Below are positions 4,912 through 57,817 of a DNA stretch of 64,000 nucleotides, piece by piece (within the stretch, counting starts at the first letter, position 1; every line of letters starts with the position of its first letter). The position numbers and the translations under genes are program-made. The DNA lies in the NCBI GenBank assembly GCA_043817235.1, contig JBDRHA010000011.1:107467-171466 (forward strand), read 5' to 3'. The DNA comes from Candidatus Shapirobacteria bacterium (lineage in GTDB: Bacteria > Patescibacteriota > Microgenomatia > UBA12405 > BS750m-G30). Below the pieces are notes generated by a model. The model was not told the origin of the DNA. It saw only the letters and a list, made by a program, of their open reading frames with translations, and ran no database searches.

Positions 4912-4917
4912 AAGGCT

Positions 4918-6825
4918 CTAGTTAACTATTTCTCCTTCTTCCGCTTCCTTTTTTTCTTCGCCGTTTTTTGGCTCTTCCTTCGGCGCTTCTTCGCTTGGCG
5001 CTTCTGCTTGAGACTCTGCGCTTTGGGCAGCTTGATGTGCTTTAGAACCAATAGCCTGCATCAAAGAAGACAATTCTTGACTTTTATTTTCATAGTCTTC
5101 TTTACTTGTTTCTTCGTTGGCTAAAAATTCTTTACTTTCTTTAACCGCTTTTTCCAAATTTTCTTTGTCTTTTTCTTCCAGCTTATTTTTCATATCAGAA
5201 AGCATTTTTTCCGCCGCAAAAACAGTATTATCTAAAGTATTTTTAGATTCTACCTTAGCTTTTTTCTCTTCATCTTCAGAAGCGTGCTTTTCCGCTTCCT
5301 CCTTCATTTTTTCCACTTCTTTCTCAGATAAATTAGTGGCATTTTTAATACTAATTTGCTGTTCTTTGCCGGTTGCCTTATCTTGAGCCGAAACATTTAA
5401 AATGCCATTACTGTCAATGTCAAAAGTAACCTCAATCTGCGGCATGCCGCGCGGAGCCGGAGGAATCCCGTCTAAAATAAACCGGCCCAACGACTTGTTG
5501 TCGGCCGCCATTGGCCGCTCTCCCTGAAGAACATTAATTTCTACCTGAGTCTGGTTGTCTGCCGCTGTAGAAAAAACTTGTGACTTTTTTGTTGGCACGG
5601 TAGTATTGCGGTCAATCAAAGAAGTGCGCACTCCCCCTAAAGTTTCAATTCCCAAAGTTAAAGGGGTAACATCCAAAAGCAAGACATCTCGCACTTCTCC
5701 TCCCAAAACTGCGCCCTGAATAGCTGCTCCCACCGCTACCACCTCATCCGGATTAACCGATTTATTGGGCTCTTTGCCAAAATATTCAGAAACCAGTTTT
5801 TGAATTTTGGGCATACGAGTCTGGCCACCGACCAAAATTACCTCATCAATATCACTTGGCTTTAGCTTGGCATCTTTTAAACAAGCCTCCACCGGCTTCA
5901 TTGTTCGCTCAGTCAGATCTTGGGTCATCTGTTCTAGCTTAGAGCGAGTTAACTTTTTCTCTAAGTGCAGGGCCTTATTGTCCCGCTGAACCAAGAAAGG
6001 CAAGTTAATTTCTGCTTCCTGAACGGAAGAAAGTTCAATTTTCGCTTTTTCGGCTGCTTCTCTGATTCTTTGCATCGCCTGAAGATCTTTAGATAGATTA
6101 ATGCCTTCGGCTTTTTTAAACTCTTCTACCAGCCATTCCACAATTTTTTGGTCAAAATCATCGCCTCCCAAGAAAGTGTCACCGTTGGTTGCCTTTACTT
6201 CAAAAACGCCGTCGCCAATTTCCAGTATAGAGATATCAAAAGTCCCACCGCCTAAATCATAAACAGCGATCGTCTCGTTTTTCTTTTTATCTAGGCCATA
6301 TGCCAAGGAAGCGGCCGTTGGCTCATTAATAATTCGCTTGACGTCCAAACCAGCAATTTCTCCGGCTTGCTTGGTCGCTTGGCGCTGAGAGTCATCAAAA
6401 TAAGCGGGAACAGTAATTACCGCTTCCTTAACTTCTTCGCCCAAAAAAGCCTCGGCATCTGCTTTTGCTTTTTGCAAAATTTTGGCTGATATTTCTTGAG
6501 GCGTATAGGTTTTATCGCCTACCTTAACTGCCGCCATGTTGTCCTTGCCTGAAACAACCTCGTAAGGAACCATTTCCTGTGTCTTTTGAACTTCCTTATC
6601 TTTGTAGCGGCGACCCATTAATCTTTTTATTGAATAAATCGTACTTTTGGGATTTAAGATCATCTGGCGCTTGGCCAAATCTCCTACCAAACCTTTTACC
6701 GGCTCCACTACCGAAGGAATTAAGTTTCCGCCCTCGGCCGTGGGAACAACCTTTGGCTTCCCCGCCTCCATAATGGCCACACAAGAATTAGTCGTTCCTA
6801 AATCAATACCGATTATTTTGCCCAT
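4918..6825 (-). CDS. dnaK: molecular chaperone DnaK (Hsp70)
   Basis: [31 protein letters not shown] signatures; 635 aa with an acidic C-terminal tail. Confidence 0.95.
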
Positions 6826-7299: not shown

Positions 7300-8002
7300 A
7301 ATAATTTACTAAAGGAACCACTTCAGAATAGCGCTGGCGGGCCGGGCCCATTACCCCAATTATTCCCTTATATGGTCCAGTTTCGTATTCTTGGAAAATA
7401 AAACCGCAGGGTTCGAGCAGAGCTTCGCCCAGGTCATGACCAATAAGCAATCTTGCCTCGCCTTCGTCAATCGGCGAAGAAACAATAGAATCCATAATTT
7501 TCAGCCAATAATCAGACCGGTCAATAAGTTCCAAAGCCATTCGGGTCACATCAATATCCATAAATTCCGGTTCATCAAGAAGGTGAGCCATACCGGAAAA
7601 ATACATGCCGCCCTGGGAAGTGGCGCTTAAAGCCATTTTTCGCGATCGTTTTGAAAGCTCTTTAGTAGCTTCTTTTAGCAAAGAATCAAAATCATGCTTT
7701 TTTTCTAACACTTTTTCTTTTACTCCCACTTCTTCGGAAACAGAAAGTTTTTTGGGAGTCATTAGTTCCCGCACGTAATACTTTAAAGCCATGGAAGTAG
7801 GCATTCTGCCCGAAGAGGCGTGAGGCTTGCTTAGGTAGCCAATCTGGGCCATCTTGGCCATTTCATTTCTTAAAGTAGCCGGGCAAACACCAAAATTATA
7901 TTTCTTTTCCAGGCTTTCCGAGCCAACTGGCTCGGCTGTATCAATAAATTCTTCTACAATCGCTTTCAAAATATTGATTTGTCTTGGTGTTAAATCGGCC
8001 AT
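7268..8002 (-). CDS. hrcA: heat-inducible transcription repressor HrcA
   Basis: N-terminal winged-HTH pattern (RQINILKAIVEEF...PVGS), 244 aa, first gene of the operon with a CIRCE-like element upstream. Confidence 0.85.
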   Translation of the reverse strand: MADLTPRQINILKAIVEEFIDTAEPVGSESLEKKYNFGVCPATLRNEMAKMAQIGYLSKPHASSGRMPTSMALKYYVRELMTPKKLSVSEEVGVKEKVLEKKHDFDSLLKEATKELSKRSRKMALSATSQGGMYFSGMAHLLDEPEFMDIDVTRMALELIDRSDYWLKIMDSIVSSPIDEGEARLLIGHDLGEALLEPCGFIFQEYETGPYKGIIGVMGPARQRYSEVVPLVNYFADIISHIAR

Positions 8003-8003
8003 A

Positions 8004-8030
8004 TTAGCAAAAGATTAACACGACTGCTAA
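8004..8030 (-). promoter_or_regulatory. CIRCE-like inverted repeat (HrcA operator) overlapping the hrcA promoter
   Basis: TTAGCAAAA-N9-GACTGCTAA matches the TTAGCA-N15-TGCTAA frame of the CIRCE consensus TTAGCACTC-N9-GAGTGCTAA. A minus-strand TTGACA (-35) at 8035-8040 lies just upstream. Confidence 0.6.
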
Positions 8031-8036
8031 TTGCTG

Positions 8037-8330
8037 TCAAGGGGTAATTTTCATTAAAGCCCAGAAAAAAGAAGCAAAAAGAATAAATAGGATAATGCTT
8101 AGCTGTTTATACCAAATAAAAAGCCCTAAAGTTAAGGTTAAAGAAAGCCATAAAGAAAGTTTAAATCTTCCCCAAATTCCAAAAAATAAGAAAAAGAAAA
8201 ACAAGAAAAAGAAAAGAAAGAAAATTAAAATTTGCCACCAAAAATCAGGAGATATTTTAACAATCCAAAACACTAAGGAAATTAAAGAAAGCAAAGATAA
8301 AAATGAAAAAAGAATTTTTCTTTTGATCAC
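8037..8330 (-). CDS. hypothetical small hydrophobic protein (doubtful)
   Basis: 97-aa Phe/Leu-rich ORF lying on an A/G-rich low-complexity tract; may not be coding. Confidence 0.2.
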   Translation of the reverse strand: MIKRKILFSFLSLLSLISLVFWIVKISPDFWWQILIFFLFFFLFFFFLFFGIWGRFKLSLWLSLTLTLGLFIWYKQLSIILFILFASFFWALMKITP

Positions 8331-8375
8331 TGTTATTATTTAAGAAGAAAAAAAGAAGAAAAGCAAACTGCTCAA

Positions 8376-8430
8376 GGGAACCGGGGGCTTGTTTGTCAAA
8401 AATCGACAAAAACAAAGCCGCCCGGCTCCC
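8376..8430. repeat. 55-bp hairpin-forming repeat, copy 1 (identical to 9851-9905)
   Basis: GGGAACCGGGGGCTTGTTTGTCAAAAATCGACAAAAACAAAGCCGCCCGGCTCCC; internal imperfect palindrome GGCTTGTTTGTC...GACAAAAACAAAGCC; at the low-GC/high-GC boundary. Confidence 0.9.
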
Positions 8431-8453
8431 CTTGCACCTAAAAATGCTACAGC

Positions 8454-9638
8454 CTATTGACTATAGCATTTCTCCCAGGAATCCATGGCCCACATGGCGT
8501 CATCTCCGCCGCATGGTTTCCAGCCGTCTATCAGCTTCTCTGCATAGACATCCGCCATCGAGCGGGCCGCGGGATCAGCGGCAGGTGAGAACGGCGCTAA
8601 AGTAATCGCGCCTTCTGCCAAGCCATGATTCCACCTGAACCCTACGAAACCTCCCTCCAGAGTTTTCCGGACGGCCCAGGTGTATATGTCCGACCAATCG
8701 ATCACCACGCTGGTGAGAATGTGGTCGTTGGGCGCCACGCGCTCGGCCCAGTTGGAATCGTAGCCGATCACCCAGACATCGGTGTCCACCAGCGCCGTAC
8801 CGGCAGCCGTGCTGTCCTGGTGCACTGCCACCACTCTCGCCCCCTCTTCTTTGAGCGCCAGCGCCCCGGCGGTCTCGTCGCCTAAGTTCTCCCAATTGTT
8901 GATATACACAGTGGAAATGCTGACCGGCAGCCCTCCCCCCTTCTCAGCCCAAGTGTCGGCGAAGCAGGCGGCGCACGCCCCGTGGTTGGAGGCTACCTGA
9001 GGATTCTCCGCATAGGCGCCCAGCATGCCAAGCTCAGGCTCATCCACAATAGCCGCCGCGGCAGCGCAGGCCGCACAGAATCCTTCCCACGATTTCGGGT
9101 ACATGGACACCAGGTTCGTGGCCACCGGCCCGCGGATGCAAGCGAAATTCACGTCGGGGTGGCTTGGCGCCACGTTTTCCTGCAGATCTTGGCACCAGTT
9201 CTCGGCGGTGACAAAGACCAGCCTGGCGCCTTTGGAAATCATGTCCTCAGCCACACGTGAAGCTTCTGTGGCGCTAAAATCCGTAGTCGCCGTCCAGGAA
9301 AGGGTGTTGACTACCACCTTACCTGTGCCATCCACAACTCTAAAGCCTTCCCCGTCCTCTTCCACCTGCATACCCTGGGATGGATCGTAGACAGCTTCCA
9401 AGGCCTGCCGCAGACCCTCCCGGTGCGCGGCCGACCAAGGGATCTGAACCGGCGAGATGTAGATCATTCCGATAGTAGTCAGATCCACAGTCTCTGCTGC
9501 ATCCGTAGGTTGCGACTGCGGCTGGGCGGTTAGCTGCACTGGCGGCGCTACTAGCGGAGCCGTGCACGCGCTGAAGACGCAGGACAGGGTGAACAAGAAA
9601 AACGTTGCGGCAAGGGCCACCAGGTGAACGCGTTTCAT
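8454..9638 (-). CDS. BMP-family (PnrA-like) ABC-transporter substrate-binding lipoprotein, probable nucleoside binding
   Basis: High-GC gene. RBS AAAGGAG plus ATG at 9638, giving MKRVHLVALAATFFLFTLSC with a lipobox; BMP-family motifs. The ORF-track start at 9728 is probably too far upstream. Confidence 0.65.
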   Translation of the reverse strand: MKRVHLVALAATFFLFTLSCVFSACTAPLVAPPVQLTAQPQSQPTDAAETVDLTTIGMIYISPVQIPWSAAHREGLRQALEAVYDPSQGMQVEEDGEGFRVVDGTGKVVVNTLSWTATTDFSATEASRVAEDMISKGARLVFVTAENWCQDLQENVAPSHPDVNFACIRGPVATNLVSMYPKSWEGFCAACAAAAAIVDEPELGMLGAYAENPQVASNHGACAACFADTWAEKGGGLPVSISTVYINNWENLGDETAGALALKEEGARVVAVHQDSTAAGTALVDTDVWVIGYDSNWAERVAPNDHILTSVVIDWSDIYTWAVRKTLEGGFVGFRWNHGLAEGAITLAPFSPAADPAARSMADVYAEKLIDGWKPCGGDDAMWAMDSWEKCYSQ

Positions 9639-9850
9639 CTTGTGTTCTCCTTTTCTTTTTTTTTGAGTACTCGGGACAACAACGCCGGCTTGCCAAGCCT
9701 TTAGGCAATTCCTCCTTTTAAGGTGCATAAAAAAAGAAAGGTTTTTTAGGGAAATCGCAATTGACTTCCCCTTGCCTTTCTTTTAATTCCTCTGTTTTTG
9801 AGAAACAAAAGAAATCCTATTATTATATACTAAGACTCATTTTACTTCTC

Positions 9851-9905
9851 GGGAACCGGGGGCTTGTTTGTCAAAAATCGACAAAAACAAAGCCGCCCGG
9901 CTCCC
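9851..9905. repeat. 55-bp hairpin-forming repeat, copy 2
   Basis: Perfect 55/55 identity with 8376-8430; lies between the two BMP genes. Confidence 0.9.
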
Positions 9906-9929
9906 AAAAGCACCTTAATCTGAAGGCTA

Positions 9930-11023
9930 CTACGGAGCGCCCACCACCCCCTCTACGAACCAACTCATGGAAAGCATGTCAGCGTCGCTCATGCACTGGC
10001 CGGAAGCGATTGCTAGAGCACCGTCCTGGCTATTGATAGGACCGCAGAAGACGTCCCACTCGCCACTGAGGATGACCTGCTCGCGCTCTTCCACCAGGTC
10101 CGCCACATCGACCGGCACACGCTCGCTCAGATCAGCCAGGGCCACGATGCCATCATTCATGCTGCCCCAGTACTGGTGCGTCTCCCAACTTCCATCGAGC
10201 ACGGCCTGCACCTGCCGCACGTAGTAGGGACCCCAATTCCACATGGGGCTGGTCAACACCGTGTCGCCCACGAACTCACGCATATCCGAGTCGTAGCCGA
10301 TGCTCAAGGCCCCGCGGTCGGCGGCGGCCTTCTGGGGTTCGGTGGTGTCCTGATGTTGAGCGATGATGTCAGCGCCCACATCGAGCAGCCCTTCGGCGGC
10401 TTCCTTCTCCAGGACCGGGTCGAACCAGGTGTTGGTCCAGACCACGCGCACCTCGGCTTCGGGATTGGCCTCGCGCACACCCAGGGTGAAAGCGTTGATG
10501 CCGCGCACAACCTCAGGGATGGGGAAGGCGGCGACATAGCCAATGATGTTGGAATGGGTCATGCGGCCAGCCACCAGACCAGAGAGGTAGCGGGGCTGGT
10601 ACATACGGCAAAGTAAGTAGCGGCGTTGTCCAGCGTCTTGTAGCCGGAGCAGTGCATGAAGACCACGTTGGGGTACTCGGCGGCGACGTTGACCGTCGGG
10701 TCCATGAACCCAAACGAGGTGGTGAAAATGACGTCGTAGCCTCGTTGGGCGAAGTCGCGGATGACCCGTTCGGCATCCGGGCCTTCGGGCACGTTTTCGA
10801 TGTAGGTGGTTTCGACTTGATCGCCGAAGGTTGCTTCGACCTGCAGTCGACCTTGCTCGTGGGCCCAGGTCCAGCCGAGGTCACCGATAGGGGCGACGTA
10901 GACGAAGGCTACTCTGAGAACCTCCGCCTCAGGGGCAGGAGCCGCGGGCTGAGCCACTGGCGGCGCGCAACCAACTATCAACGCTAGAATCACGACAACT
11001 AGCAAAGCCAAATTCTTCTTCAT
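9930..11023 (-). pseudogene. BMP-family substrate-binding lipoprotein gene split by a frameshift near 10600-10660
   Basis: N-terminal piece 10559-11023 (MKKNLALLVVVILALIVGC lipobox, RBS CTCCTT at 11032) and C-terminal piece 9930-10604 are in different frames. The concatenation reads as one BMP protein (...KTLDNAATYFA / RMYQPRYLSGLVAGRM...). Confidence 0.55.
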
Positions 11024-11095
11024 CTTTCTTCTCCTTAAGAATTATTGAGATGAGACAGAGGTGCGATGTTCTGCACCTCTGTCTTTGCGAAACTC

Positions 11096-13033
11096 CTACC
11101 GCACGACCTCCCTGCATTCCCCGGTGGTCACGTTGACGAATCCGGAGGGGCAGTCCTCGAAGGGAGCCACGAGCACCCACTTCCAAGGCTGGCAGGTCAG
11201 GGTTTGGAACCGTGCCGATTCGGCACTTTGGAGCGCGGCTGAACTATATGCCGGGCTCTCCACTGGCAGGTAGGAGAGCCATTCCAGTCCGGCGGCGGAC
11301 TCCCAGAAAGCCTCGAAATCCTCGGCTACCTCATGCGCGGGTCGCGACGACATGAGCCCGCCGATCTCCAACTGGACATAGTCCACTACCTCGCCACCCG
11401 AGACCAGGACATAGCCGCCGTTGATGGAGGCCAGGTAGTTGACGGCCTGAGCCATGGCCTCGTCGCTGGTGCCCATCACCTGGACGTTGTGATTATCGTG
11501 CGCCTCGCTCAGGGCGAAGGCCGTATCCGGCGTGGCCGGACCGACGTCGCGCCAGAACATGCAGGCCACCGGATCTGCTAGCGCATTGTAGCGGTCGACG
11601 ATGCAGAACTTGCTGACCTTGTTGGCGACGTCGCGCTGGACCGCTCCGTCTACCACCGGCAGCTCGACTTCTGGGTAGGTGGGAGCGAAGTAGAACTGGC
11701 TTAAGACGGCGGCCATGGCCGTATTGCCTTCTGCCGCCACCACGAAATCGTCTGCCGTCACCTCGCGGCCGATGTTGATGGTGTCTTGCGCCCATTCTGG
11801 CCAGTCGACGGTCGGAATCTCGTAGACCAACTGGCCATCCACGCCGACGAGCTTGCCGGAGGCCCAGACTCTGTTGATATCGACGGTCTCCGGGTTGCGC
11901 AAGAGCACGACATGGGCATACCGCCCGGGGGCGATGGAGCCCACCAGGTGCTCGAGATGCCAGTGACGTGCGGCCGTATAGGAGGCCGAGGCGTAGGCTG
12001 CCTCTACAGGGACGCCCAGCTGGATCGCCGTCCTGGTGTTGTAGTCCATGGTCCCCAGCTCCAGAGCCTCGTCCACGCTTCGGTCGTCCGTGGTCCAGGA
12101 CATGTTGGACCAGTCCTTCAGCCCCATCTTGATAAGGTAAGGAATGACCTTTCCCATGGAGCCTGTCCTGATTTGAATGAAGACCCCGTGGCGAAGCTTG
12201 TCCAAGACTTCGGCGCCTTCGCGAATCTCGTGATCGGATGACAGCCCGGCGGCTGCGAAGGCATTGATCTCATCGTAGGTGAACATGCGGCTGCCGTGGC
12301 CCTCGATCACCCCGTCTGCATCCCAGGTGGCTTGTAAGGCCTGCCACATGCGTTCGTATCCGGGCATCTCTGGGTTCCACACCGATGGCCAGTCCATGAC
12401 CTCGCCCAGTCCAATCACCCAGGGGTGGCTGTTCATGAGCTCCGTGACCGCATCGTAGTCGTAGTAACCCCCGGTGAACTCGAACGGCGTCGGCGGGATG
12501 GCCGAGCCTAGCTGTGGGAAAATGGTTAGTGGGCTGCCATTCTGGTGGGGAAGCAGCCACAATTCGGCGTTGTGGTCGCCATCCACGTTGCCAAACTCGT
12601 GCGATGCTTCTGCGATCCAGGTTGTCCCCTGCGGCAGAACCACTTCGGCTTCGCGGTCCGGCGAAAGATGGCTGGACTCGATGTGCTTGTGGGGTTCGCC
12701 GAACCCCGGCACCGCGTAGAGGCCGTAGGCGTCCACCGTTTCCGCGGCCGTTCCCGACCAGGCGCCGCGGGGACCCACCCAGGCAATCCGCTCGCCTTTG
12801 ATGACGATGTCCTGGCTGGGCATCCAGGTTAGGGTGTGGACGTCGAGGACCGTTGCACCGGAAATGATCAGGTCTGCTTCGGCCCTGCCCAGAGCGACCA
12901 GCACCAGCTCCTGGCGGACCTTCACTTCATCCGATGGGAAGTCTTGCCGGTCGAAGTCGGCTGCGGCAGGCAATGCCCCTGTCACAAGCAGTGCTGCCAA
13001 CAGCATTACACTTAGCAATGCTTTGTGTTTCAC
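11096..13033 (-). CDS. adenine deaminase family amidohydrolase with an N-terminal Sec signal peptide
   Basis: ISGATVLDVHT and PGFGEPHKHIESS and GLGEVMDWP match adenine deaminase motifs. The likely start is GTG at 13031-13033 preceded by AAGGAG, giving MKHKALLSVMLLAALLVTGALPAAADF. Confidence 0.6.
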   Translation of the reverse strand: MKHKALLSVMLLAALLVTGALPAAADFDRQDFPSDEVKVRQELVLVALGRAEADLIISGATVLDVHTLTWMPSQDIVIKGERIAWVGPRGAWSGTAAETVDAYGLYAVPGFGEPHKHIESSHLSPDREAEVVLPQGTTWIAEASHEFGNVDGDHNAELWLLPHQNGSPLTIFPQLGSAIPPTPFEFTGGYYDYDAVTELMNSHPWVIGLGEVMDWPSVWNPEMPGYERMWQALQATWDADGVIEGHGSRMFTYDEINAFAAAGLSSDHEIREGAEVLDKLRHGVFIQIRTGSMGKVIPYLIKMGLKDWSNMSWTTDDRSVDEALELGTMDYNTRTAIQLGVPVEAAYASASYTAARHWHLEHLVGSIAPGRYAHVVLLRNPETVDINRVWASGKLVGVDGQLVYEIPTVDWPEWAQDTINIGREVTADDFVVAAEGNTAMAAVLSQFYFAPTYPEVELPVVDGAVQRDVANKVSKFCIVDRYNALADPVACMFWRDVGPATPDTAFALSEAHDNHNVQVMGTSDEAMAQAVNYLASINGGYVLVSGGEVVDYVQLEIGGLMSSRPAHEVAEDFEAFWESAAGLEWLSYLPVESPAYSSAALQSAESARFQTLTCQPWKWVLVAPFEDCPSGFVNVTTGECREVVR

Positions 13034-13500
13034 GTTAATCTCCTTGTTGGTTGGTATATGGTGAATCGCGGTGTTGGCCAAGAACGCTTGGCGTTAACGC
13101 TGTCCTCTGCCTTCATCTGGTTGACTGCCAGATTAAGACAGTTCTTGCTTTTTTAAAAGCAAGACGAATATAGGAACAGCAGGAAGAAAAAACCACTAAA
13201 AATATTAATCTAATAATCTTTTTTTCCCGCTGTTCCTTTAGCCTTCAAATTGTTAAGGTGCTTTAAAAAAGTTCAGAGAAAAGCGCTTGAAAAAATCGCT
13301 TTTGATTTTTTTAGCTTTTTTCTCCAGTTTCCCTTTTTGGAAACAAAAAAACCCGGGATATATTTATCCCAGGTTCAGATTTTTTCCAAAACACAAAAAC
13401 GGTATTTGGTATGTGGCGCCCTGTTTCATTTATTTTATCTCCGGCAGGCCTTTGAGATACTATATTGTTTAAGCAAATATAGCTTTTTTCTAAAAGCTCG

Positions 13501-14061
13501 TCAAGACTCAGATTTGAAAATCGGCAAAGAAACTAGATATTCAAACGGCTCAAGTTCTTCAAATAATTTTTCTCCTTGTTTGACAATCGCCCCAAAAACG
13601 ACTATATCTGCTTCACACTTTTCCATTAATTTTTTCATCATTCGCATGGTCACACCGGTAGAAATAACATCGTCCACGATGGCTACTTTTTTTCCTTTGA
13701 TTAAATCCCGATCTAAGCCGTCAATTACTAGAGGCTTAACGTGTTTAGGAAAATGCGGCAAGGGTTTTAAAACCAAAGGATTAATCATATGCGGCTTGCG
13801 GCTTTTGCGGCAAATAACATAATGCTTATGGTTAAAAATGTTAGCCAGCTGATCAATTAAAGGTACTACTTTTACTTCCGGCCCCACTAGATAATCAAAA
13901 TCATATTTTTTTAGTTTCTTATAAAGCGCTTTGGCCGTCGCTCTAATCAGCAAAACATCTCCGGAAATGTTCAAACTGGCAATTTTAGTGTTCTTGCCAA
14001 TTCCGATTAAGGGCAATTTTCTTTGTAAACCGCAGATTGCAAGATCATAAAAATCTCTCAC
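13501..14061 (-). CDS. type I phosphoribosyltransferase (purine PRTase-like)
   Basis: PRPP-binding motif KVAIVDDVISTGVTM; 186 aa; low-GC native gene right beside the high-GC island. Confidence 0.6.
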   Translation of the reverse strand: MRDFYDLAICGLQRKLPLIGIGKNTKIASLNISGDVLLIRATAKALYKKLKKYDFDYLVGPEVKVVPLIDQLANIFNHKHYVICRKSRKPHMINPLVLKPLPHFPKHVKPLVIDGLDRDLIKGKKVAIVDDVISTGVTMRMMKKLMEKCEADIVVFGAIVKQGEKLFEELEPFEYLVSLPIFKSES

Positions 14062-15139: not shown

Positions 15140-18100
15140 ATGACAATTAAGTTAAACCCTACCCAGAAAGAGGCGGTCAAACATGAAAAAGGCCCGCTTT
15201 TGATTATTGCCGGAGCCGGAACTGGAAAAACAACAGTAATTACCGAGCGAATCAAATGGCTTATTACCAAAAAAAACATTCTTCCTTCTCAAATCCTAGC
15301 TCTTACTTTTACTAATAAAGCCGCTTTGGAAATGGAAGAGAGGGTGGACTTAGCTTTACCCCTGGGCTATTCTAATATGTGGATTTCTACTTTTCATTCT
15401 TTTGGCGATAGAGTGTTGCGAGATGAGGCAGTGCATATCGGTCTTGATCCGAATTTTAAGCTCCTCTCCCAAGCCGAATCTCTGCTTTTTTTGCGAAAAA
15501 ATTTATTTAAGCTAAAACTAAATTACTTTAGGCCGGCCACTAACCCGACCAAGTTTTTAGACGCCTTACTTACCCATTTTGCCCGGCTGGCAGATGAATA
15601 CATCAGCCCTCAAGAATATTTAAATTTTGCCCAAAAACAAAAAGATAAAGCCGACACCAAGGAAGAGAAACTGGAAGCAAAAAAAAGCTTGGAGCTGGCT
15701 AATTGTTTTGCCCAATGCCAAATCTTGAAAGAAAAAAACGGATTTATGGACTTTAGTGACCTGATCAGCAACACCTTAGCTTTATTTAATAAGAGGCCAA
15801 ATATTTTGCGAAATTATCAGGAAAAATTTAAGCATGTTTTGGTGGACGAATTTCAAGATACAAATATTGCCCAAAACGAACTAATCAGTTTGCTTACCCT
15901 AAAGAAAGGAAATATTACAGTGGTAGCTGACGATGACCAATGTTTACCTGCCAATACTCTCATCGAAACCCCACAGGGACGAAAAAATATCAAAAATATT
16001 AAGACAGGAGATATGGTAATAACAGGCGTTGGTAAAGGCTATGTTTCTGCTAAAAAAGTAACTAAAAAATTTACTTCTAAAAAAACAGCAGACTTTCTGT
16101 CAGTAACAATGGAATGTGGAAAAAACCTAACATTAACAGCAAATCATCTAGTCTTCTGCTATACTCCACGTTTTTATACTAACAAAAAATGGTATTACAT
16201 CTATCTAATGGAAAATAAAGATTTGGGCTGGCGATTAGGAGTAACTCATGATCTTGTCCAAAGGCTTAAGTTGGAAAGAAGCGCGGATAGGATTATTGCG
16301 ATTAAAGCCTGTAAAACTAATCAGGAAGCTCATTATTGGGAATCTTACTATTCATTAAAATATAAAATACCTACCGTTTGCTTTAAAGAAAGAGGAAATC
16401 TTATCGCCGGCGAATGGCTTAAAAAGCTTTATTCGGCAATTGACAGCAAAAAGGGAGCAATTAATTTAGCAAATGATCTTCAAATTGAACTTAGCAGACA
16501 TCATTATTGCCTAGATGCAGTGAATCGAGGAAGCAAGAAAAGAACGAAAGTAAATCTCTATTTATGCCTGAGAAAACATCGAATTAAGAAACATTTAAAA
16601 AATAATATTCTCATCAATCCCAAGATAGTTCATCAAGTCGGAATCACCACCTCAAATAAAAGAGTCATTAATATTGTCAGATCTTTAGGACTAGATATGA
16701 CGAAAGGCAAAAAGAACACCAAAGCCTTTAGAAAGCAGTTTAGCTCCTTCATTGAAGCCGGAAAATTTGCGCGATATCTTGCAGACAGCACTAAGGCAAT
16801 TTTGGACATTAAAACTGCAATCGCAACTAAAAACGGTATTTCTAAACAAGCAAGAGTTATGCCTGCAAGCAATCTCGTCGAGGGCATATATTTACCCATA
16901 TTAAAAAATAATAATATTGTTTACGACGAAATCGTCGCAATCTCTAGAAAAAGAAAAACACAAACTGTTTATGATTTAGAGATAGAAGACAGCCATAATT
17001 TCATCGCCAATCAAATCGTTGTTCATAATTCTATTTATAAGTGGCGCGGAGCAGCAATTTCCAATGTGCTTCAATTTAAAAAGAATTTTCCAAAAACTAA
17101 GATAATTACCCTTAATCAAAACTATCGCTCTACTCAGGAAATTTTAGATCGCGCTTATCAGCTCATCCAGAACAATAACCCGGACCGGCTGGAAGTTAAA
17201 GAAAGAATCAATAAAAAACTCAAAGCAGTTCGCCCAATTAAAGGAAAACCAATAGAACTTATTTTTACTCCCAGAGCAGAGCAGGAGGCAGAAGAGGTGG
17301 CTATAAGAATTAAAAAACTAGTTAGCCGGAAATATGAGCCAAGAGATGTTGCTATTTTAGTCAGAGCCAACAGCCAAGCCGAATCTTTTACTCGCGCCCT
17401 TTCCCGTAACAATATTCCCTATCAATTTTTAGGCCCAGGCCAGCTTTTTCGCCAGCCGGAAATTAAAAACTTGATTTCTTATCTTAAGATTCTTACTAAT
17501 CCGGAAGATAATGTAGCCCTTTTTCGCTTAAGCAATTTGCCTGTTTTTAAAATCTGGGCACGCGATTTAGCTTTTAGCAATAGCTTTGCTAAAAAGAATA
17601 ACCTATCCCTTTTTGAAGCCTTTGAAAAAATTAGTCAAAAAAAGAAAAAAAATGAGGAATTAAATCTCCCTTCATTTGCCAAGGTTAGCCAGAACGGAAT
17701 AAAAAAATTGGTCAAAATAGTTTATCGCCATTGGAAACTTGTTTCCAAAGAGTCGGGCGGCCAGCTGCTTTACTATTTTTTAGAACAAACCAAGCTCTTA
17801 GAACAGTATTTAAAACCGGAAACAGAAAATCAACAGCTGGCCGCCCTAAATATTGCCAAATTTTTCGATAAAATAAAAAGCTTTGAAGCTCAAAATAAGG
17901 AAACCCTAGCAGGGGATTTATTAGACTGGATTACCCTAAGAATGGAAATGGGAGAAAGCCCGCAGGCCTCAGAAATTGATTGGACAAACTATAATGCTGT
18001 AAATATTATCACTATTCACTCGGCCAAAGGCCTTGAGTTTCCGATTGTCTTTCTGGTTAACCTGGTCAACCGCCGCTTTCCCACTGATAAAAGAAGGGAA

Positions 18101-19147
18101 GCTATTCCCATCCCCCAGCCACTAATCAAGGAAATCCTACCTAAGGGAGATTACCACCTACAAGAAGAGCGCCGGCTTTTTTATGTCGGGCTTACCCGAG
18201 CCAAAGACCAAGTCTTTTTAACTGCTGCCAAAGTGTATCCAGAAAGAAAGCTGGAAAAGAAACTTTCAATTTTTGTGAACGAAACCCTAGGCGATCAAAA
18301 AGAAAGGTCAATATTAAACGAGAAAAGCTCATCCTTAGCCGAATGGGAAAAAGAAAAGCAAGTGGAAAAAGCACCTGTTCTAAATCCACCCGTGAGCTTT
18401 CTTTCCTATTCTCAAATTGATGCTTTTGACATTTGTCCCCGGCAATATCAATATAAATACGCCCTAAGAATAACTACTCCCCCTTCGGCTACCCAAACCT
18501 TTGGCAGTATCGTCCACCAAACCTTAAAAGCTTTCTGCCAAAAACAAATTGCCGCAAACCACAAGCTTAAGCAGGAAGAATTATTAAAATTACTTTCCCA
18601 AAGCTGGATTTCCCGGGGATTTAAAAGCAAACTGGAAGAAAAAAAAGCCAAGCAAAATGCGGCTAAGATGTTAAAAAATTACTATCAAAAGGGCTTTAAT
18701 TATCAAAACGTAGACCAGGTTATGGCCCTAGAACAGTCCTTTAATTTTAAAATCACACCCGGTTTAAAAATTGGGGGGATTATTGACCGAGTAGACAATT
18801 TGAAAAACAATCAAATAGAAATTATTGATTATAAAACAGGAGCCAGAATACCCAAGCAAAAAGACGTTGACGGAAACGACCAGCTTACTCTTTATGCTTT
18901 AGCGGCCAGCTCGCTTAAAGATCTAAGCTTTTATCGGCCCTTAAACAAAATTATTCTTTCTCTATATTTTTTGGATCAAGGGAAAAAACTAAGCAGTAAG
19001 CGCACACCCAGCCAAATTGGTAAATTTAAGGAAAAAATAATTAACCTGGCTAAAGAACTGGAAAAAACCAACTTCCCTTCCCAGCCGAACACGCCTTTTC
19101 CTTGTGATTTCTGTGAATACAAGCTTCTTTGCGACGCCTGGCACTAA
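15140..19147 (+). CDS. UvrD-family helicase fused to a C-terminal Cas4/AddB-like PD-(D/E)xK FeS nuclease; intein-interrupted
   Basis: Walker A AGAGTGKTT, motif II VLVDEFQDTN, motif III split as VVADDDQ/.../SIYKWRGA. C-terminus has DICPRQY...IDYKTG...CDFCEYKLLC (Cas4-like nuclease with a 4-Cys cluster). Confidence 0.8.
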   Translation: MTIKLNPTQKEAVKHEKGPLLIIAGAGTGKTTVITERIKWLITKKNILPSQILALTFTNKAALEMEERVDLALPLGYSNMWISTFHSFGDRVLRDEAVHIGLDPNFKLLSQAESLLFLRKNLFKLKLNYFRPATNPTKFLDALLTHFARLADEYISPQEYLNFAQKQKDKADTKEEKLEAKKSLELANCFAQCQILKEKNGFMDFSDLISNTLALFNKRPNILRNYQEKFKHVLVDEFQDTNIAQNELISLLTLKKGNITVVADDDQCLPANTLIETPQGRKNIKNIKTGDMVITGVGKGYVSAKKVTKKFTSKKTADFLSVTMECGKNLTLTANHLVFCYTPRFYTNKKWYYIYLMENKDLGWRLGVTHDLVQRLKLERSADRIIAIKACKTNQEAHYWESYYSLKYKIPTVCFKERGNLIAGEWLKKLYSAIDSKKGAINLANDLQIELSRHHYCLDAVNRGSKKRTKVNLYLCLRKHRIKKHLKNNILINPKIVHQVGITTSNKRVINIVRSLGLDMTKGKKNTKAFRKQFSSFIEAGKFARYLADSTKAILDIKTAIATKNGISKQARVMPASNLVEGIYLPILKNNNIVYDEIVAISRKRKTQTVYDLEIEDSHNFIANQIVVHNSIYKWRGAAISNVLQFKKNFPKTKIITLNQNYRSTQEILDRAYQLIQNNNPDRLEVKERINKKLKAVRPIKGKPIELIFTPRAEQEAEEVAIRIKKLVSRKYEPRDVAILVRANSQAESFTRALSRNNIPYQFLGPGQLFRQPEIKNLISYLKILTNPEDNVALFRLSNLPVFKIWARDLAFSNSFAKKNNLSLFEAFEKISQKKKKNEELNLPSFAKVSQNGIKKLVKIVYRHWKLVSKESGGQLLYYFLEQTKLLEQYLKPETENQQLAALNIAKFFDKIKSFEAQNKETLAGDLLDWITLRMEMGESPQASEIDWTNYNAVNIITIHSAKGLEFPIVFLVNLVNRRFPTDKRREAIPIPQPLIKEILPKGDYHLQEERRLFYVGLTRAKDQVFLTAAKVYPERKLEKKLSIFVNETLGDQKERSILNEKSSSLAEWEKEKQVEKAPVLNPPVSFLSYSQIDAFDICPRQYQYKYALRITTPPSATQTFGSIVHQTLKAFCQKQIAANHKLKQEELLKLLSQSWISRGFKSKLEEKKAKQNAAKMLKNYYQKGFNYQNVDQVMALEQSFNFKITPGLKIGGIIDRVDNLKNNQIEIIDYKTGARIPKQKDVDGNDQLTLYALAASSLKDLSFYRPLNKIILSLYFLDQGKKLSSKRTPSQIGKFKEKIINLAKELEKTNFPSQPNTPFPCDFCEYKLLCDAWH
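15941..17029 (+). mobile_element. intein (363 aa) inserted in helicase motif III
   Basis: Starts with Cys (CLPANTLIETPQGRKNIKNIKTGDMV, block A) right after DDDQ. Ends ...VYDLEIEDSHNFIANQIVVHN followed by Ser (block G, HN+S). The host motif SIYKWRGA resumes in frame. Confidence 0.75.
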
Positions 19148-21804: not shown

Positions 21805-23730
21805 TCACTCTGTATCTAAATCCCAGCTATCATCAAAAACTTCCGTCCCTTCAAAGCAAAGCAAATTCTCTGATATATCCAGTAAAAAGCGAGAAGGTTC
21901 ATTAAAACTCATTTGGCCAAAATAAAGCCGCTTGCTGGCAAAACTCAAAAAAAGCCGCTTTCTGGCCCGGGTTAAGCCAACATAACAAAGCCGGCGCTCT
22001 TCTTCTAATCTTTCTTCTTCTTCTAAGGAACGGGCATGAGGGAGCAGGCCTTCCTCTAAGCCTACAATAAACACAGCCTCAAACTCTAATCCTTTACTGG
22101 CATGCAAGGTCATTAAACGAATGGCTTGGCTGGCCCAATCTTTTTTTTCTTTTTCCTGGACAAAATATTCTTGCTGAACTAAAGTCACATTTTCTAAAAA
22201 TTCACCTATGTCAGGAAAAGACTCGGCTACAGACAAGAGTTCATTAATATTTTCTAATCTCCGGCTGTCTTCCTCCTCGTCCGGATCATACTTTTCTAAA
22301 TAAGTACTCTTTTCTAAAAGGGCGCTAAGCAGACTTTTGCTCTCCCATGTCTCTTTTCTTTTTTCTTTAATAAAATCTTTAACCTTATTCGTTCTTCTTA
22401 TGCCCATATTTTTTACTAATCTTTCCAAAGAAACATCATCTTTAGGGTTATAAAAAAACCGAAGCAAAGATAAGGCGTCTTTTACTTCTTGCCTTTCATA
22501 AAAGCGCACCCCACCAATTAGTATATAGGGCAAGCCCCGCCTAATTAAAACCTCTTCAATTACCCGCGATTGAGCATTAGTTCGATACAAAATAGCAATT
22601 TTCGTCGGGTCTGTACCTTTAAAATCCACCAGGGTCTTAATTTTATCTGCTACCCAAGCCGCCTCACCGCCTTCGGAAAGTGCCTGATAAACTACAGCTT
22701 TTTCTCCACCTTTATTCTCTGTTCTCAATCTTAAAACCGGGTGCTTGCTATTTTGCCGAATAACTTCAAAAGCTATGTCCAAAATATTTTGAGTAGAACG
22801 ATAATTAACCTCCAAATTAACGGTCTTGATTTTTGGAAAATCAGATTTTAAATTAAGCAAATTCCGGTAATCAGCTCCTCGCCAAGAATAAATCGCTTGA
22901 GAGGCATCGCCAACTACGGTTAGATTTTGATATTTTTGAGCCAGCAGCTTGGTAAGCAGATACTGAGGACGATTGGTATCCTGATACTCATCTACCAATA
23001 TATACTTATACCTTTCCTGAAATATTTTTAATACATTTTCTTTTTCTTCCAAAAGACGCACTGCTTGACAAAGTAAATCTGTAAAATCTAAAGCATTCAT
23101 TTCCTGCAGCTTTTTTTCATATTCAAGATATACTTTAGCCACTACCTTTCGATAAGGATCATAAGCCTTTTTGCCAAAACTTTTGGCGTCCAGAAGTTCG
23201 TTTTTTGCTTGCTCGATAATCGCTTTTAAAACCACTGGCTTAAAACGTTTATCAGATAAATCAAATTTCTTTAAAATATTTTTAAGTAAAGATTGTGAAT
23301 CTCCCTCGTCAAAAATCACAAAATTGGGAGATAAATTGATTGCTTTGCCAAAAGAACGAAGCGAATATCCACCAAAAGAGTGGAAGGTTCCGGCAAATAA
23401 ATTCGCCTTCTTATTTTCGCCCAAAAGACTCAAAAGCCTTTGCTTCATTTCTCCGGCCGCCTTATTGGTAAAAGTTAAGAGCAAGAGCTCATTTATTTTT
23501 GCTTTTCCGGCGGCCACCAGCCAAGCCGCCCGATGAGTTAAAACCCGGGTCTTGCCGCTGCCAGCACCGGCCAAAACCAAAAGCGGCCCCCTGTCATGCG
23601 TCACCGCTTGCTTTTGAGCCGTATTTAAATCTTTGAATAAATCTTCCACTCTATTATTGTAACAGTAAATTAGGTTTTTAATTGGCAGTTTATTGATACT
23701 ATGTTTCGATGTATCGATACATCGAAACAT
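21805..23730 (-). CDS. UvrD/PcrA-family DNA helicase (start uncertain)
   Basis: LVLAGAGSGKTRVLTHR, VDEYQDTN, VVGDASQAIYSWRGA, no intein. The ORF-track N-terminus MFRCIDTSKHS is a translation of the palindrome at 23701-23730, so the real start is probably downstream (non-ATG). Confidence 0.75.
   Translation of the reverse strand: MFRCIDTSKHSINKLPIKNLIYCYNNRVEDLFKDLNTAQKQAVTHDRGPLLVLAGAGSGKTRVLTHRAAWLVAAGKAKINELLLLTFTNKAAGEMKQRLLSLLGENKKANLFAGTFHSFGGYSLRSFGKAINLSPNFVIFDEGDSQSLLKNILKKFDLSDKRFKPVVLKAIIEQAKNELLDAKSFGKKAYDPYRKVVAKVYLEYEKKLQEMNALDFTDLLCQAVRLLEEKENVLKIFQERYKYILVDEYQDTNRPQYLLTKLLAQKYQNLTVVGDASQAIYSWRGADYRNLLNLKSDFPKIKTVNLEVNYRSTQNILDIAFEVIRQNSKHPVLRLRTENKGGEKAVVYQALSEGGEAAWVADKIKTLVDFKGTDPTKIAILYRTNAQSRVIEEVLIRRGLPYILIGGVRFYERQEVKDALSLLRFFYNPKDDVSLERLVKNMGIRRTNKVKDFIKEKRKETWESKSLLSALLEKSTYLEKYDPDEEEDSRRLENINELLSVAESFPDIGEFLENVTLVQQEYFVQEKEKKDWASQAIRLMTLHASKGLEFEAVFIVGLEEGLLPHARSLEEEERLEEERRLCYVGLTRARKRLFLSFASKRLYFGQMSFNEPSRFLLDISENLLCFEGTEVFDDSWDLDTE
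23703..23728. promoter_or_regulatory. perfect 26-bp palindrome GTTTCGATGTATCGATACATCGAAAC, copy 1 (putative operator)
   Basis: 40 bp upstream of the YerC/TrpR-like gene; identical copies at 24228-24253 and 62677-62702. Confidence 0.6.
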
Positions 23731-23767
23731 AGTACTTGCATGTTTAAAATTCTCATGATTAAATGTT

Positions 23768-24217
23768 TTGATGACTCAAATTTCCAAAAAATTCGTAAAG
23801 CCAGAAACTCTTGAAAAAACTTTTGACCTTCTGTTGGCTTCTTTACTAAAAAGCGGGGGCAAAGCAGATACCAAAGAATTTCTTGAGGACCTCTTAACAC
23901 CGACAGAAAAAGTCATGATTGCCAAAAGAATTGCAATCGCTTATCTTCTCCTCCAGGAAGTTGATCATAGAACTATTTCTGAAATGCTTAAAGTAAGCAC
24001 GTCTACAATAAATCGGATATCGTTTGTTCTTAATAGGCAAGGAGCTGGTTTCAAAAGAGTTCTGAAGAGATTACTAAGAGAAAAGAAAATTAATAATATT
24101 CTTGAAGAAGTCGGCGAACTGCTGTTTAATTCATTACCGCCTAAATACGGCGATAAAAGAGCCTGGGCCAAAGAAAAATTTGTCAGAAAAATGACCCGCC
24201 AATCACCCTTGAGCTAA
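23768..24217 (+). CDS. YerC/YecD-family TrpR-like DNA-binding protein
   Basis: LTPTEKVMIAKRIAIAYLL...ISEMLKVSTSTINRIS matches the TrpR-related YerC family HTH. Confidence 0.7.
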   Translation: MMTQISKKFVKPETLEKTFDLLLASLLKSGGKADTKEFLEDLLTPTEKVMIAKRIAIAYLLLQEVDHRTISEMLKVSTSTINRISFVLNRQGAGFKRVLKRLLREKKINNILEEVGELLFNSLPPKYGDKRAWAKEKFVRKMTRQSPLS

Positions 24218-24227
24218 AAATTCATCT

Positions 24228-24253
24228 GTTTCGATGTATCGATACATCGAAAC
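24228..24253. promoter_or_regulatory. 26-bp palindrome copy 2
   Basis: Identical to 23703-23728; 10 bp past the YerC-like stop, in the convergent gap with the DUF2298 gene. Confidence 0.6.
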
Positions 24254-24258
24254 GGGAA

Positions 24259-26322
24259 TTAGAGCTTTAGCTTATATAATCTCGTTCCGCCGTTGGAGAA
24301 AACGATCTTGCCCCAATCGTTAAATCTATTTTCATCCAGCTGGGGATATTTTTCTTTTTCCAGTTCTCCGACAACAACATATTCTACCTGATACTCTTCT
24401 AGCAAGTCCTTTGCTAAAATTAAGTTTTGACCTTGATAAATCTTTTCAACTTCAGCGGCTCGAGAACCGGGAAGATCATAGCCGCCCCGCCAAAGCCATT
24501 CATGCACCAACCACCCTTCTATGGTGGGCAACCCCGTCAAGGCAGAAACCCGATCGTATAAGGTATAACTATCACCTACCGCTTCTAAGATATTAGGTTG
24601 ATTTTTAATATTTTTCTTAATCCATAAAACCAGCTGAAAATCTCCCGGATACTGTATTTTTAAAAAATTTAAACCAAAAAGACCCTGATAACGAGAAGCT
24701 TTTAGCTCACCATAGTATCCACGGACGGCAAAAAAAGGATAGATCATTTGCGCGCTAAATCCTAAAAGAAAAAACAAAAGGAATAAACGAGAAAGCCAGT
24801 AGAGCTTACTGTCCTCTAAAAAGCCTTTTACCTTTAGAACAATAAAGCCGGACATTGAGGCAAAAAGGACAAAAGACTGATAGACCAGCTTAAACATTGT
24901 GTTGGCCCGGTGGTATTCAAAAATATAGATATCTTTTACATAAATAATCTCCGGAATAATAATCAAAATCAAAGCCCAAAAGGAAGCCGAGAAAGTCAGC
25001 CACTCTGCCGGACCCCGATAGGGACTTTTAATAAAGATGAGCCAAAAACAAATACTCAAAAACCAGAAAAAACCCCATAAAACAAAAAACTGCCACCACA
25101 ATGTATGAGCATTTACCAACCCTATTCCCTGAGTCATCGGCGAAAAGCTGCGGGCAAAAAGCAAGGAGGTCAGCCCGGTAATTAGCAAAGAAATAATTCC
25201 CCAGCCAATTATTTCTTTTAAAGCCTTTAACCTTTGGGTAGATTTTAGCTTTCTCCCCAGCAACCAAAAGCCAAGCAAAAAAAGAGCCAGAAAAACCCCA
25301 TAAATAGGCAAATCCCAAGAATTAGTCATGTACATTAATCCCAGCAAAAAACCGGGCAAAATAAAATTTTTAATTTTTCTTTCTTTTAAAACCAACCCCA
25401 AGGCCAAAAGGCTGGCCAAAAAAAGCAAAACCGCAGGCAGGTTATTCAAGTGCCCGTGCAGATCGGCTACTACAAATGAGTAAGAAGGAAATTCGTGTAT
25501 TGTTTTGTCGTTGGGATTATTGGGGTTGTATCCTATAAAACGAGTAGCGTCAGGGTACCAGTAACGAGAAGCCCCATTTTTCAAGATGTAAGTTACAGCA
25601 TGCAGGTTTCCTCCAAGCGCAAGCAAAAAAGCAGAAATAAATGCCGCTCCTATAATCGCTTTCTCTTTTATTTTTCTGCTTCCTTTTTTACTTTGGAAAA
25701 AGACCAAGTTCGCTGTCAAGCAAAAGCCGCTCCCGAAAGTAAGGGCAAAAAGGGTAGCAATCATCAGATTATAGGTAGTCGCCGAATCTAAGCCCGAAAG
25801 CTTGGTTAATACAGCTGCCTGAAGATGGCCAAAATAATAATAATTGATTGCCCCACCGCTAAACCACATGTCCTTGGGTGGAAAAAACTGGGAACGGAGC
25901 AAGGAGTTTACAAAACCATAGTCCATAAATTTCTCCAAGCCCTCAATATTGGGCTGAAAAGCACGAATAAAAGACCAAAAAAGCAGGGCTGCCAAAAATA
26001 TTCCTTCTTCCAATAAAATTGTTTTTTTGATCTTCAAAAGTGCTTTTTTGTATTTAGGCAGTTCTTTTCTTAAGCGCCAGTAAAATGCTCCCGCCCAAGC
26101 AATCAAAATTAAGAAAATCGTTTCTTGATAAAAAGGAAGAAGATGAAAACTTGCCAAAAGAAAAACACTAAAAGACAAAACTAATATTCCTAAGGTTTTA
26201 GCTAAAATCCAACCCTTGTCCCAAAAACTAGCAAAGACTTTTAAAGCTAGGGGCAAGAATAGGATCCCCAAAAAAAGTAAAATCAGCCACCAGTAAATAA
26301 TCGTAAAAAAGTCAATAAGCAT
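24259..26322 (-). CDS. DUF2298 (Chlor_Arch_YYY) large integral membrane protein
   Basis: 687 aa, many TM segments, signature GGAINYYYFGH. Confidence 0.6.
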   Translation of the reverse strand: MLIDFFTIIYWWLILLFLGILFLPLALKVFASFWDKGWILAKTLGILVLSFSVFLLASFHLLPFYQETIFLILIAWAGAFYWRLRKELPKYKKALLKIKKTILLEEGIFLAALLFWSFIRAFQPNIEGLEKFMDYGFVNSLLRSQFFPPKDMWFSGGAINYYYFGHLQAAVLTKLSGLDSATTYNLMIATLFALTFGSGFCLTANLVFFQSKKGSRKIKEKAIIGAAFISAFLLALGGNLHAVTYILKNGASRYWYPDATRFIGYNPNNPNDKTIHEFPSYSFVVADLHGHLNNLPAVLLFLASLLALGLVLKERKIKNFILPGFLLGLMYMTNSWDLPIYGVFLALFLLGFWLLGRKLKSTQRLKALKEIIGWGIISLLITGLTSLLFARSFSPMTQGIGLVNAHTLWWQFFVLWGFFWFLSICFWLIFIKSPYRGPAEWLTFSASFWALILIIIPEIIYVKDIYIFEYHRANTMFKLVYQSFVLFASMSGFIVLKVKGFLEDSKLYWLSRLFLLFFLLGFSAQMIYPFFAVRGYYGELKASRYQGLFGLNFLKIQYPGDFQLVLWIKKNIKNQPNILEAVGDSYTLYDRVSALTGLPTIEGWLVHEWLWRGGYDLPGSRAAEVEKIYQGQNLILAKDLLEEYQVEYVVVGELEKEKYPQLDENRFNDWGKIVFSNGGTRLYKLKL

Positions 26323-54440: not shown

Positions 54441-54514
54441 GGGCCGTTAGCTCAGTTGGCTAGAGCACTGTCCTGATAAGACAGGGGTCTCAGGTTCGAG
54501 TCCTGAACGGCCCA
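54441..54514 (+). tRNA. tRNA-Ile (anticodon GAT)
   Basis: 74 nt; acceptor stem GGGCCGT/ACGGCCC, D-arm GCTCAGTTGGCTAGAGC, anticodon loop CTGATAA, T-arm TCAGGTTCGAGTCCTGA; no encoded CCA. Confidence 0.85.
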
Positions 54515-56360: not shown

Positions 56361-56369
56361 TTAACCCTA

Positions 56370-57789: not shown

Positions 57790-57817
57790 GTCTTTTTGTT
57801 TTTAATAAAAACCAAAA

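Follow-up and report, generated by a model that had tools for sequence, protein, structure and literature searches.

A palindromic candidate operator brackets the gene of a TrpR-family protein in Patescibacteria

Does a long palindrome that stands on both sides of a gene for a DNA-binding protein serve as the operator of that protein? This question is raised by a stretch of 64,000 nucleotides from a Candidatus Shapirobacteria bacterium (positions 107,467 to 171,466 of contig JBDRHA010000011.1, GenBank assembly GCA_043817235.1; hereafter the window), in which the 26-mer GTTTCGATGTATCGATACATCGAAAC occurs in three exact copies (23703-23728, 24228-24253 and 62678-62703). Two of the copies enclose a gene for a helix-turn-helix (HTH) protein of the TrpR family. 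A previous reading of the letters without database searches (the sequence-only reading) had proposed that the palindrome is the operator of this HTH protein, and comparison with related genomes points in the same direction. The palindrome, which brackets the gene of a TrpR-family protein specific to Patescibacteria (23771-24217), is probably the cognate operator of this protein, and the protein probably autoregulates its gene. The elements concerned are the following.

23697-23734, no strand: copy 1, predicted upstream operator, a perfect palindrome of 38 bp (tactatGTTTCGATGTATCGATACATCGAAACatagta), intergenic between the divergent uvrD and trpR-like genes
23771-24217, plus strand: gene of the TrpR-family HTH protein, 148 amino acids (PF01371, E 2e-15)
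24228-24253, no strand: copy 2, predicted downstream operator, a 26-bp perfect palindrome between convergent genes
62677-62704, no strand: copy 3, predicted third operator, a perfect palindrome of 28 bp; the intergenic region that holds it measures 180 bp

The number of copies had been judged to be far beyond chance, and this was borne out, as 100 dinucleotide-preserving shuffles gave no match to the 26-mer and zero matches are expected by chance. No further copies with up to three mismatches were detected in the window, and a search for the minimal core CGATG-N8-CATCG with up to one mismatch returned the same three sites only, without weaker ones. The positions given before for the first two copies were right and that of the third was off by one; an extension of one copy to 30 bp had also been seen, and the perfect palindromes in fact measure 38 bp at copy 1 and 28 bp at copy 3. 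Within the palindrome, three TCGA cores are spaced by 8 bp. Copy 2 starts 10 nt past the TAA stop codon (24215-24217) of the TrpR-like gene, in agreement with the previous reading, and ends 5 nt short of the stop codon of the convergent gene. The longest UvrD open reading frame (ORF) begins within copy 1, from which an overlap of this copy with the start of UvrD had been deduced. The Pfam helicase domain begins at residue 9 when counted from GTG 23652, and a UvrD orthologue in a related locus (L081, 61% identical) starts at the equivalent place. These two observations put the likely start of UvrD at GTG 23652 and therefore copy 1 in the intergenic region between divergent genes, so that the overlap is no longer maintained.

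The position of copy 1 fits the autoregulation proposed before, since it lies beside a promoter predicted from the sequence:

23736-23764, plus strand: predicted promoter of the TrpR-like gene (TTGCAT, 17 nt, TGaTTAAAT with extended -10)

The right end of copy 1 is 2 bp short of the -35-like TTGCAT. A transcription start at or near the ATG at 23771, and thus a leaderless mRNA, is implied by this predicted promoter. A promoter scan gave an alternative (TCGAAA-17-TAAAAT at 23722-23750), which overlaps the operator. On the other side, a promoter-like site on the minus strand is directed toward uvrD, and 15 bp separate its -35-like hexamer from the left edge of copy 1.

The protein encoded between copies 1 and 2 is a member of the Trp_repressor family PF01371, which it matches with 57 bits over residues 17-101 (gathering cutoff 27). 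It scores below the equivalog cutoffs of both better known branches, YerC/YecD (TIGR02531, 34.3 bits vs 42.2) and TrpR proper (TIGR01321, 30.6 bits vs 67.25). The YerC/YecD equivalog identity was hence rejected; the gene had been called YerC/YecD-like by the sequence-only reading, and this name is not upheld by the score. The protein also has an additional C-terminal tail. An AlphaFold model (predicted local distance difference test 80) shows the all-helical TrpR fold, with its HTH in helices D and E, across residues ~10-105, followed by a C-terminal extension of ~45 amino acids with two extra helices of lower confidence. The top matches of this model among PDB structures in Foldseek were 3frw, 3g1c, 3kor and E. 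coli TrpR. Their target-normalised TM values were 0.7-0.86 over ~92-100 residues, and ~0.8 for HisR-like and TrpR structures; PDB 1trr, titled as tandem binding, was among the fold matches. A profile from 44 homologues matched 3frw, 3kor and 3g1c at ~1e-9 and E. coli TrpR at ~1e-3, so that the nearest solved relatives by sequence and fold belong to the HisR group (B. subtilis YerC and S. aureus YerC-like). No catalytic domain was found with Pfam or in the fold model. The subfamily comprises 285 homologues of 140-176 amino acids, with 144 clusters at 50% identity reaching E<=1e-30, and appears confined to Patescibacteria as far as source names show. Publications on this subfamily or its sites were not found in full-text searching, which left papers on palindromes and regulons in Patescibacteria partly uncovered.

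If the palindrome is the operator of this protein, inverted repeats should also accompany the homologous genes of other lineages. An inverted repeat was present just upstream of the homologous gene in 11 of 11 lineage comparisons (homologues with 31-48% identity), and a second one followed the stop codon at a distance of 3-77 bp in 10 of the 11. The repeat sequence itself is lineage-specific. The nearest homologue on a usable contig is P0002 in L081 (48% identity), where the gene order FemAB-UvrD-TrpR-like-DUF2298 is identical to that of the window and the gene is flanked on both sides by a different perfect palindrome, GACTCAATGTTTTAAAACATTGAGTC. In five loci that carry the 20-bp core of the window palindrome (L027, L040/L048, L049, L074), TBLASTN detected the TrpR-like gene with 31-34% identity, in each case with one site ~7-10 bp past the stop codon and another upstream. 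The further lineages show these arrangements:

L089: three sites around the TrpR-like gene
L090, L091: an upstream site with 7 bp between its end and the ATG, and its reverse complement 3 bp past the stop codon
L092: sites on both sides, and a third directly upstream of folD
L093: three sites upstream and two downstream
L094: sites on both sides
L095: an upstream site only, plus a pair 4.7-5.5 kb away

The distance from the end of the upstream site to the start codon is 1-36 bp in eight lineages (window, L049, L090-L095). All sites seen in the lineages of the window, L081, L092, L093 and L095 are intergenic and mostly promoter-proximal.

Common to these different sequences is a motif ATG-N8-CAT centred on the symmetry axis, which was present in 33 of 36 sites representing nine lineage motif types. 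S76 and T79 of the recognition helix are invariant, and so is the ATG of the site. Helix residues 2-3 vary together with the two bases 5' of the ATG:

helix residues 2-3 TS: bases CG
helix residues 2-3 TG: bases CT
helix residues 2-3 TA: bases CA
helix residues 2-3 F(S/T): bases (C/T)C
helix residues 2-3 RG: bases CC

Geometry and co-variation of helix and site are strong comparative evidence for a recognition of these sites by the protein. Together with the bracketing across lineages, they argue for the operator function that the sequence-only reading had assigned to the palindrome.

Several further observations were made at these loci. In the L081 lineage, the variant operator lies in an oriented, promoter-like intergenic repeat of ~300 bp upstream of uvrD, AlaRS and a 269-amino-acid gene. 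In copies of this repeat (L084 1-320, L086 3150-3540, L087 1585-1945 and L088 5680-6075), the L081-type operator is accompanied by an extended -10 (TGGTAGAAT) and by a ~170-nt leader in which GATAAATGG-like motifs abound; Rfam gave no match. A conserved leader is located between the downstream operator and thrS in L090 (10486-10677) and L091 (10484-10772); it has no Rfam match, contains catgagacgtaac..cctcaaagagaagcgc..cagcgtaaaga..aagtcacc..ggatggaacc and might represent a thrS leader that has escaped recognition. In two distant lineages the TrpR-like gene adjoins one-carbon/folate genes (SHMT, FolD, FTCD_C; L089 8425-10441 and L092 9313-13019), and in three genomes other than these it precedes thrS-infC-rpmI-rplT-pheST. 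The pair of sites in L095 (4537-5352) consists of two L090-type operators in inverted orientation, 788 bp apart, and the sole plausible ORF between them encodes a Cys-rich peptide of 65 amino acids (4880-5077) with a good ribosome-binding site.

The proposed operator resembles that of TrpR in its design and differs from it in sequence. The TrpR operator consists of inverted 5-bp half-sites with an 8-bp spacer (PMC9413887), which corresponds to CGATG-N8-CATCG in the window and to the ATG-N8-CAT of the related sites. The two proteins share Pfam family and fold, and in both systems 4-bp cores at 8-bp spacing (CTAG for TrpR, TCGA in the window) would permit tandem dimers. E. coli TrpR autoregulates its own gene, its operators being those of trpEDCBA, aroH and trpR. 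Unlike the protein of the window with its 148 amino acids and C-terminal extension, E. coli TrpR has ~108 amino acids; its half-site is GNACT instead of CGATG, and tryptophan genes are absent near the window gene. The second operator past the stop codon and the many intragenic sites of the relatives described below also set the system of the window apart from TrpR. With regard to HisR, the sequence-only reading had stated that the function of YerC/YecD is essentially unknown. This is outdated: the YerC protein of B. subtilis is the histidine-dependent repressor HisR, whose 20-bp palindromic operators are defined and were validated in vitro, and autoregulation is frequent among HisR operators (PMC9413887). 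The HisR operator cacTTTA-N6-TAAAgtg, which precedes genes of histidine biosynthesis or transport, is unlike the palindrome of the window, and his genes were absent both from the region of the window and from 11 related loci.

The following mechanism is conceivable, in which binding, repression, looping and a small-molecule co-repressor are inferred, partly by analogy with TrpR. The protein would bind in the form of a symmetric dimer, and each of the two inverted CGATG half-sites would be read by one recognition helix (K-V-S-T-S-T-I-N-R); the outer symmetric positions (GTTT/AAAC) may give lineage-specific contacts. Tandem or overlapping dimers might be accommodated on the TCGA cores. Occupation of copy 1 would repress the TrpR-like gene and probably influence uvrD. 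Copy 2 might reinforce this repression by looping across 525 bp, possibly via the C-terminal extension, and might also act as a roadblock or as a terminator or hairpin against the convergent gene. Copy 3 would bring the downstream ORF under the same control. The neighbouring genes are:

21805-23652, minus strand: UvrD/PcrA-like helicase, divergent from copy 1, likely start GTG 23652, candidate co-regulated gene
24259-26322, minus strand: DUF2298 membrane protein, convergent with the TrpR-like gene
62780-63409, plus strand: ORF of 209 amino acids downstream of copy 3, candidate regulated gene

For uvrD, the synteny is orthologous in L081-L084, where the lineage's own operator lies 181 bp upstream of this gene. 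Copy 3 is separated by 76 bp (end of the 26-mer to the ATG) from the 209-amino-acid ORF, which has no family match. A homologue of this ORF was absent from all related loci fetched and hence from the vicinity of any site there, so that its membership in a regulon, as suggested by the sequence-only reading, gains no support. Just upstream of copy 3, a BrnT toxin / CopG-type antitoxin pair is encoded (61626-62166, minus strand).

Beyond the TrpR-like gene, the palindrome is distributed over the genomes of related bacteria. When species-representative genomes were searched for exact matches to the 20-bp core TCGATGTATCGATACATCGA, at least 80 loci in 27 genomes were obtained. These genomes are nearly all named Roizman-, Gottesman- or Shapirobacteria, 'Patescibacteria group' or 'Gammaproteobacteria', the latter label being probably wrong, and one is labelled Saprospiraceae. 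The counts per genome are lower bounds; including the window, the 28 genomes of roughly 1 Mb contain up to at least 9 exact cores, often about one per contig of 30-145 kb. The sequence-only reading had taken an occurrence at dozens of loci without a link to the gene as the mark of a generic repeat. The number of loci is indeed that high, and the sites bracket or precede the gene wherever the gene was seen. Copies of the core are identical within a genome, and their flank consensus (ACT/AGT, TGTA/TACA or GTT/AAC) is genome-specific. Among the matches listed, cores are placed in intergenic regions 3.6-fold more often than the non-coding fraction of 7% would predict (p 9e-8); of the 22 intergenic sites in the other genomes, 13 follow a stop codon at no more than 35 bp, and 4 are situated between convergent genes.

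The same survey revealed properties which weigh against a plain repressor with a set of promoters under its control. Of the 83 cores among the matches listed in the 27 other genomes, 61 (73%) are intragenic. They occur in all three frames, encoding SMYRYIE, LRCIDTS or FDVSIHR, and at the same position in orthologues from several genomes. The genes concerned encode GT4 and GT2 glycosyltransferases, an AddA-like helicase, RsmI, Nnr, MurC-MurB, Sua5-TsaE and PheS, and furthermore AlaRS, TrmD, Fmt, QueA, KsgA, RecG, Alr and others. A functional theme was sought in 29 gene clusters by Pfam and dismissed, since translation, cell-wall, repair, cofactor and sugar functions were found without a common pathway, and for intragenic sites of this kind a promoter-operator model gives no account. 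The small regulon proposed by the sequence-only reading is only partly supported and is at odds with these unrelated housekeeping genes of the relatives. In addition, the sites are all-or-none: ~560 kb of related loci contained 86 exact cores and no variant with a single mismatch; real degenerate copies numbered three, and two of these adjoin the TrpR-like gene. Long exact operators without graded variants are atypical of a repressor regulon. We also know of no precedent in TrpR or HisR systems for a site just past the stop codon.

The origin of the intragenic sites deserves attention in this context. In alignments of RsmI, MurC and Nnr with solved homologues, no residues are added at the site. 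The murC site was present only in a small clade among 120 MurC orthologues, and the proteins of the site-bearers are 2-3 residues shorter. In the nearest site-less orthologue (81% identical), an unrelated segment of 38 nt takes the place of 29 nt in the site-bearers. Because the two segments are unrelated and both flanks align well, the site was gained by abrupt in-frame segment replacement and conserved afterwards. This replacement also counts against the operator reading, as it suggests some copying process beyond selection for binding. The flanks of intragenic sites have diverged to ~65-75% identity with the sites remaining exact; this identity profile is given little weight because it is partly circular, both members of each pair having been found by exact match. 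The dispersed, largely intragenic sites and their acquisition are the surprising part.

A second family of palindromes was noticed in Roizmanbacteria-type genomes. This GC-rich element (CCTGCCTGCCGGCAGGCAGG) is inserted in frame into coding genes (L097 2190-2225; L019 3422-3439 and 4388-4405; L013 6940-6957). In L097 it lies inside the AT-rich operator within murC and adds seven codons, and other MurC orthologues carry P/A/R/S-rich inserts in the same loop.

Different explanations were considered for these dispersed sites. It is possible, though we regard it as tentative, that protein and palindromes form a genome-wide cis-element system of Patescibacteria beyond autoregulation, in which perfect sites of 20-28 bp would be written into coding sequence by in-frame segment replacement and then kept exact over long periods. 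Such sites might act as landmarks or roadblocks, as a TrpR-family analogue of parS, NBS or matS, or site and binder might be a self-propagating pair; in that case, the re-tuning of helix and site by lineage would switch the specificity of the entire system. A mainly structural role, in which the protein binds the palindromes as chromosome marks for organisation, segregation or division control and the cluster at the gene is a point of nucleation or autoregulation, is unlikely in our view. It would resemble parS/ParB, the Noc-binding sites (NBS/Noc), the SlmA-binding sites (SBS/SlmA) and matS/MatP, in which each genome likewise has between a handful and some tens of near-exact palindromes that are conserved across species, many of them inside genes. 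The number of exact sites per genome and their spacing over contigs, their all-or-none character and their conserved positions in all three frames of unrelated housekeeping genes agree with this, and the intergenic enrichment is expected if position matters and coding sequence is tolerated. Sites of parS are commonly near the gene of the binder, and with SlmA a member of a repressor family (TetR) was recruited to a role at chromosomal sites. The binder of the window comes from an unrelated protein family, no TrpR-family member is known with such a role, and the exclusively intergenic, mostly promoter-proximal sites in the five lineages named above (window, L081, L092, L093, L095) speak against it. 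A parS site proper was excluded, since its 16-bp consensus TGTTNCACGTGAAACA is absent from the window at up to two mismatches and the adjacent protein belongs to the TrpR family and not to ParB.

That the palindromes are small selfish or mobile repeats, comparable to repetitive extragenic palindromic (REP) sequences, miniature inverted-repeat transposable elements or Rickettsia palindromic elements (RPEs), and that the TrpR-like gene is an associated or domesticated binder or a frequent neighbour, is considered improbable. The layout palindrome-gene-palindrome does recall terminal inverted repeats, with an asymmetric centre that is inverted between the copies in L090 and L091. The identity of copies within a genome, the ~300-bp repeat around the L081-lineage copies, the abrupt appearance of the murC site and the in-frame insertions of the GC-rich family in the same genomes are in line with mobility, and REPs and RPEs are also short palindromic repeats in several copies, RPEs even in frame inside genes. 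Here, on the contrary, no net insertion occurs in the proteins, and with the shorter site-bearing MurC this led to the rejection of a pure insertion of mobile palindromes into genes. Sites stay exact after their gain (with the ascertainment caveat given above for the flanks), and the gene order of window and L081 is stable with the palindrome differing at all copies. The protein has no catalytic domain, and the sites co-vary with this DNA-binding protein, in contrast to REPs and RPEs. The copy number is far lower (the maximum is at least 9 per genome), a GTAG/CGTC head as in REPs is missing, and with 61 of the 83 listed copies inside genes the sites are not extragenic. A signature of the REP-associated tyrosine (RAYT) type is lacking, and no gene for a Y1 (RAYT) transposase was noticed among the ORFs examined, whole genomes not having been scanned. 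An origin from phages or defence systems was also discarded, as 20-mer matches in viral contigs and PHROG matches were absent and PADLOC matches were insignificant.

Very improbable is a function solely as RNA hairpins, i.e. as terminators or stabilisers of mRNA ends independent of the protein, with only incidental proximity to the gene. Strong folds are predicted (-17 to -27 kcal/mol, z -4 to -7; copy 2 -26.7 kcal/mol, z -7.2), and the preference of intergenic sites for the ends of genes and convergent regions, together with a downstream site of the TrpR-like gene that is always just past its stop codon, would suit such hairpins. The symmetry is perfect through the would-be loop, without asymmetry of the G-U type, sites are also found upstream of promoters and within genes, and ATG-N8-CAT with its helix co-variation points to the recognition of duplex DNA. 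At copy 2, no T-run occurs within 2 nt on either strand and a terminator scan was silent; adjacent U-tracts are lacking. Known RNA families were excluded as well, Rfam having returned tRNAs only in the window and five related loci. A dual role of copy 2 as DNA site and RNA hairpin could nevertheless apply.

The operator reading remains the one we favour for the TrpR-like gene itself. To our knowledge, gene regulation in Patescibacteria (candidate phyla radiation bacteria) is almost uncharted, these organisms being mostly uncultured and possessing few predicted regulators. The system described here would represent a first testable regulator with its binding site for a group of uncultured ultra-small bacteria. 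It belongs to a widespread regulator subfamily for which operators are predicted in nine lineages, and a simple predicted read-out code relates helix residues 2-3 to the bases beside the ATG. Operators which bracket their own gene and exact, conserved operators in housekeeping genes are unexpected from TrpR and HisR biology, and may indicate a second, non-classical use of this repressor family.

Some other features of the window were recorded. The GC skew is uniformly negative across the window, without a signal of origin or terminus. The AddA-like UvrD-helicase/PD-(D/E)XK nuclease (15140-19147, plus strand, 1335 amino acids) contains an in-frame intein (Hint and Intein_splicing, residues ~263-630), which is missing in the Roizmanbacteria orthologues; there, the same gene holds an intragenic operator palindrome. 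Bmp/PnrA-like binding proteins are encoded together with an adenine deaminase in a GC-rich island at ~8000-14000 (56% vs ~38% GC), where one Bmp gene is flanked by an exact 55-nt direct repeat (8376-8430 and 9851-9905) whose sequence also forms an inverted repeat. Downstream of the tRNA gene at 54441-54514, small gene cassettes are separated by a GC-rich intergenic repeat of ~110 nt (56369-56475, 57817-57951, 59222-59316 and 62220-62265), which has no Rfam match. Finally, coding tandem repeats at 43199-44039 and 45707-46340, with periods of 372 bp and 279 bp and 67-75% identity, probably encode repeat-domain surface proteins.

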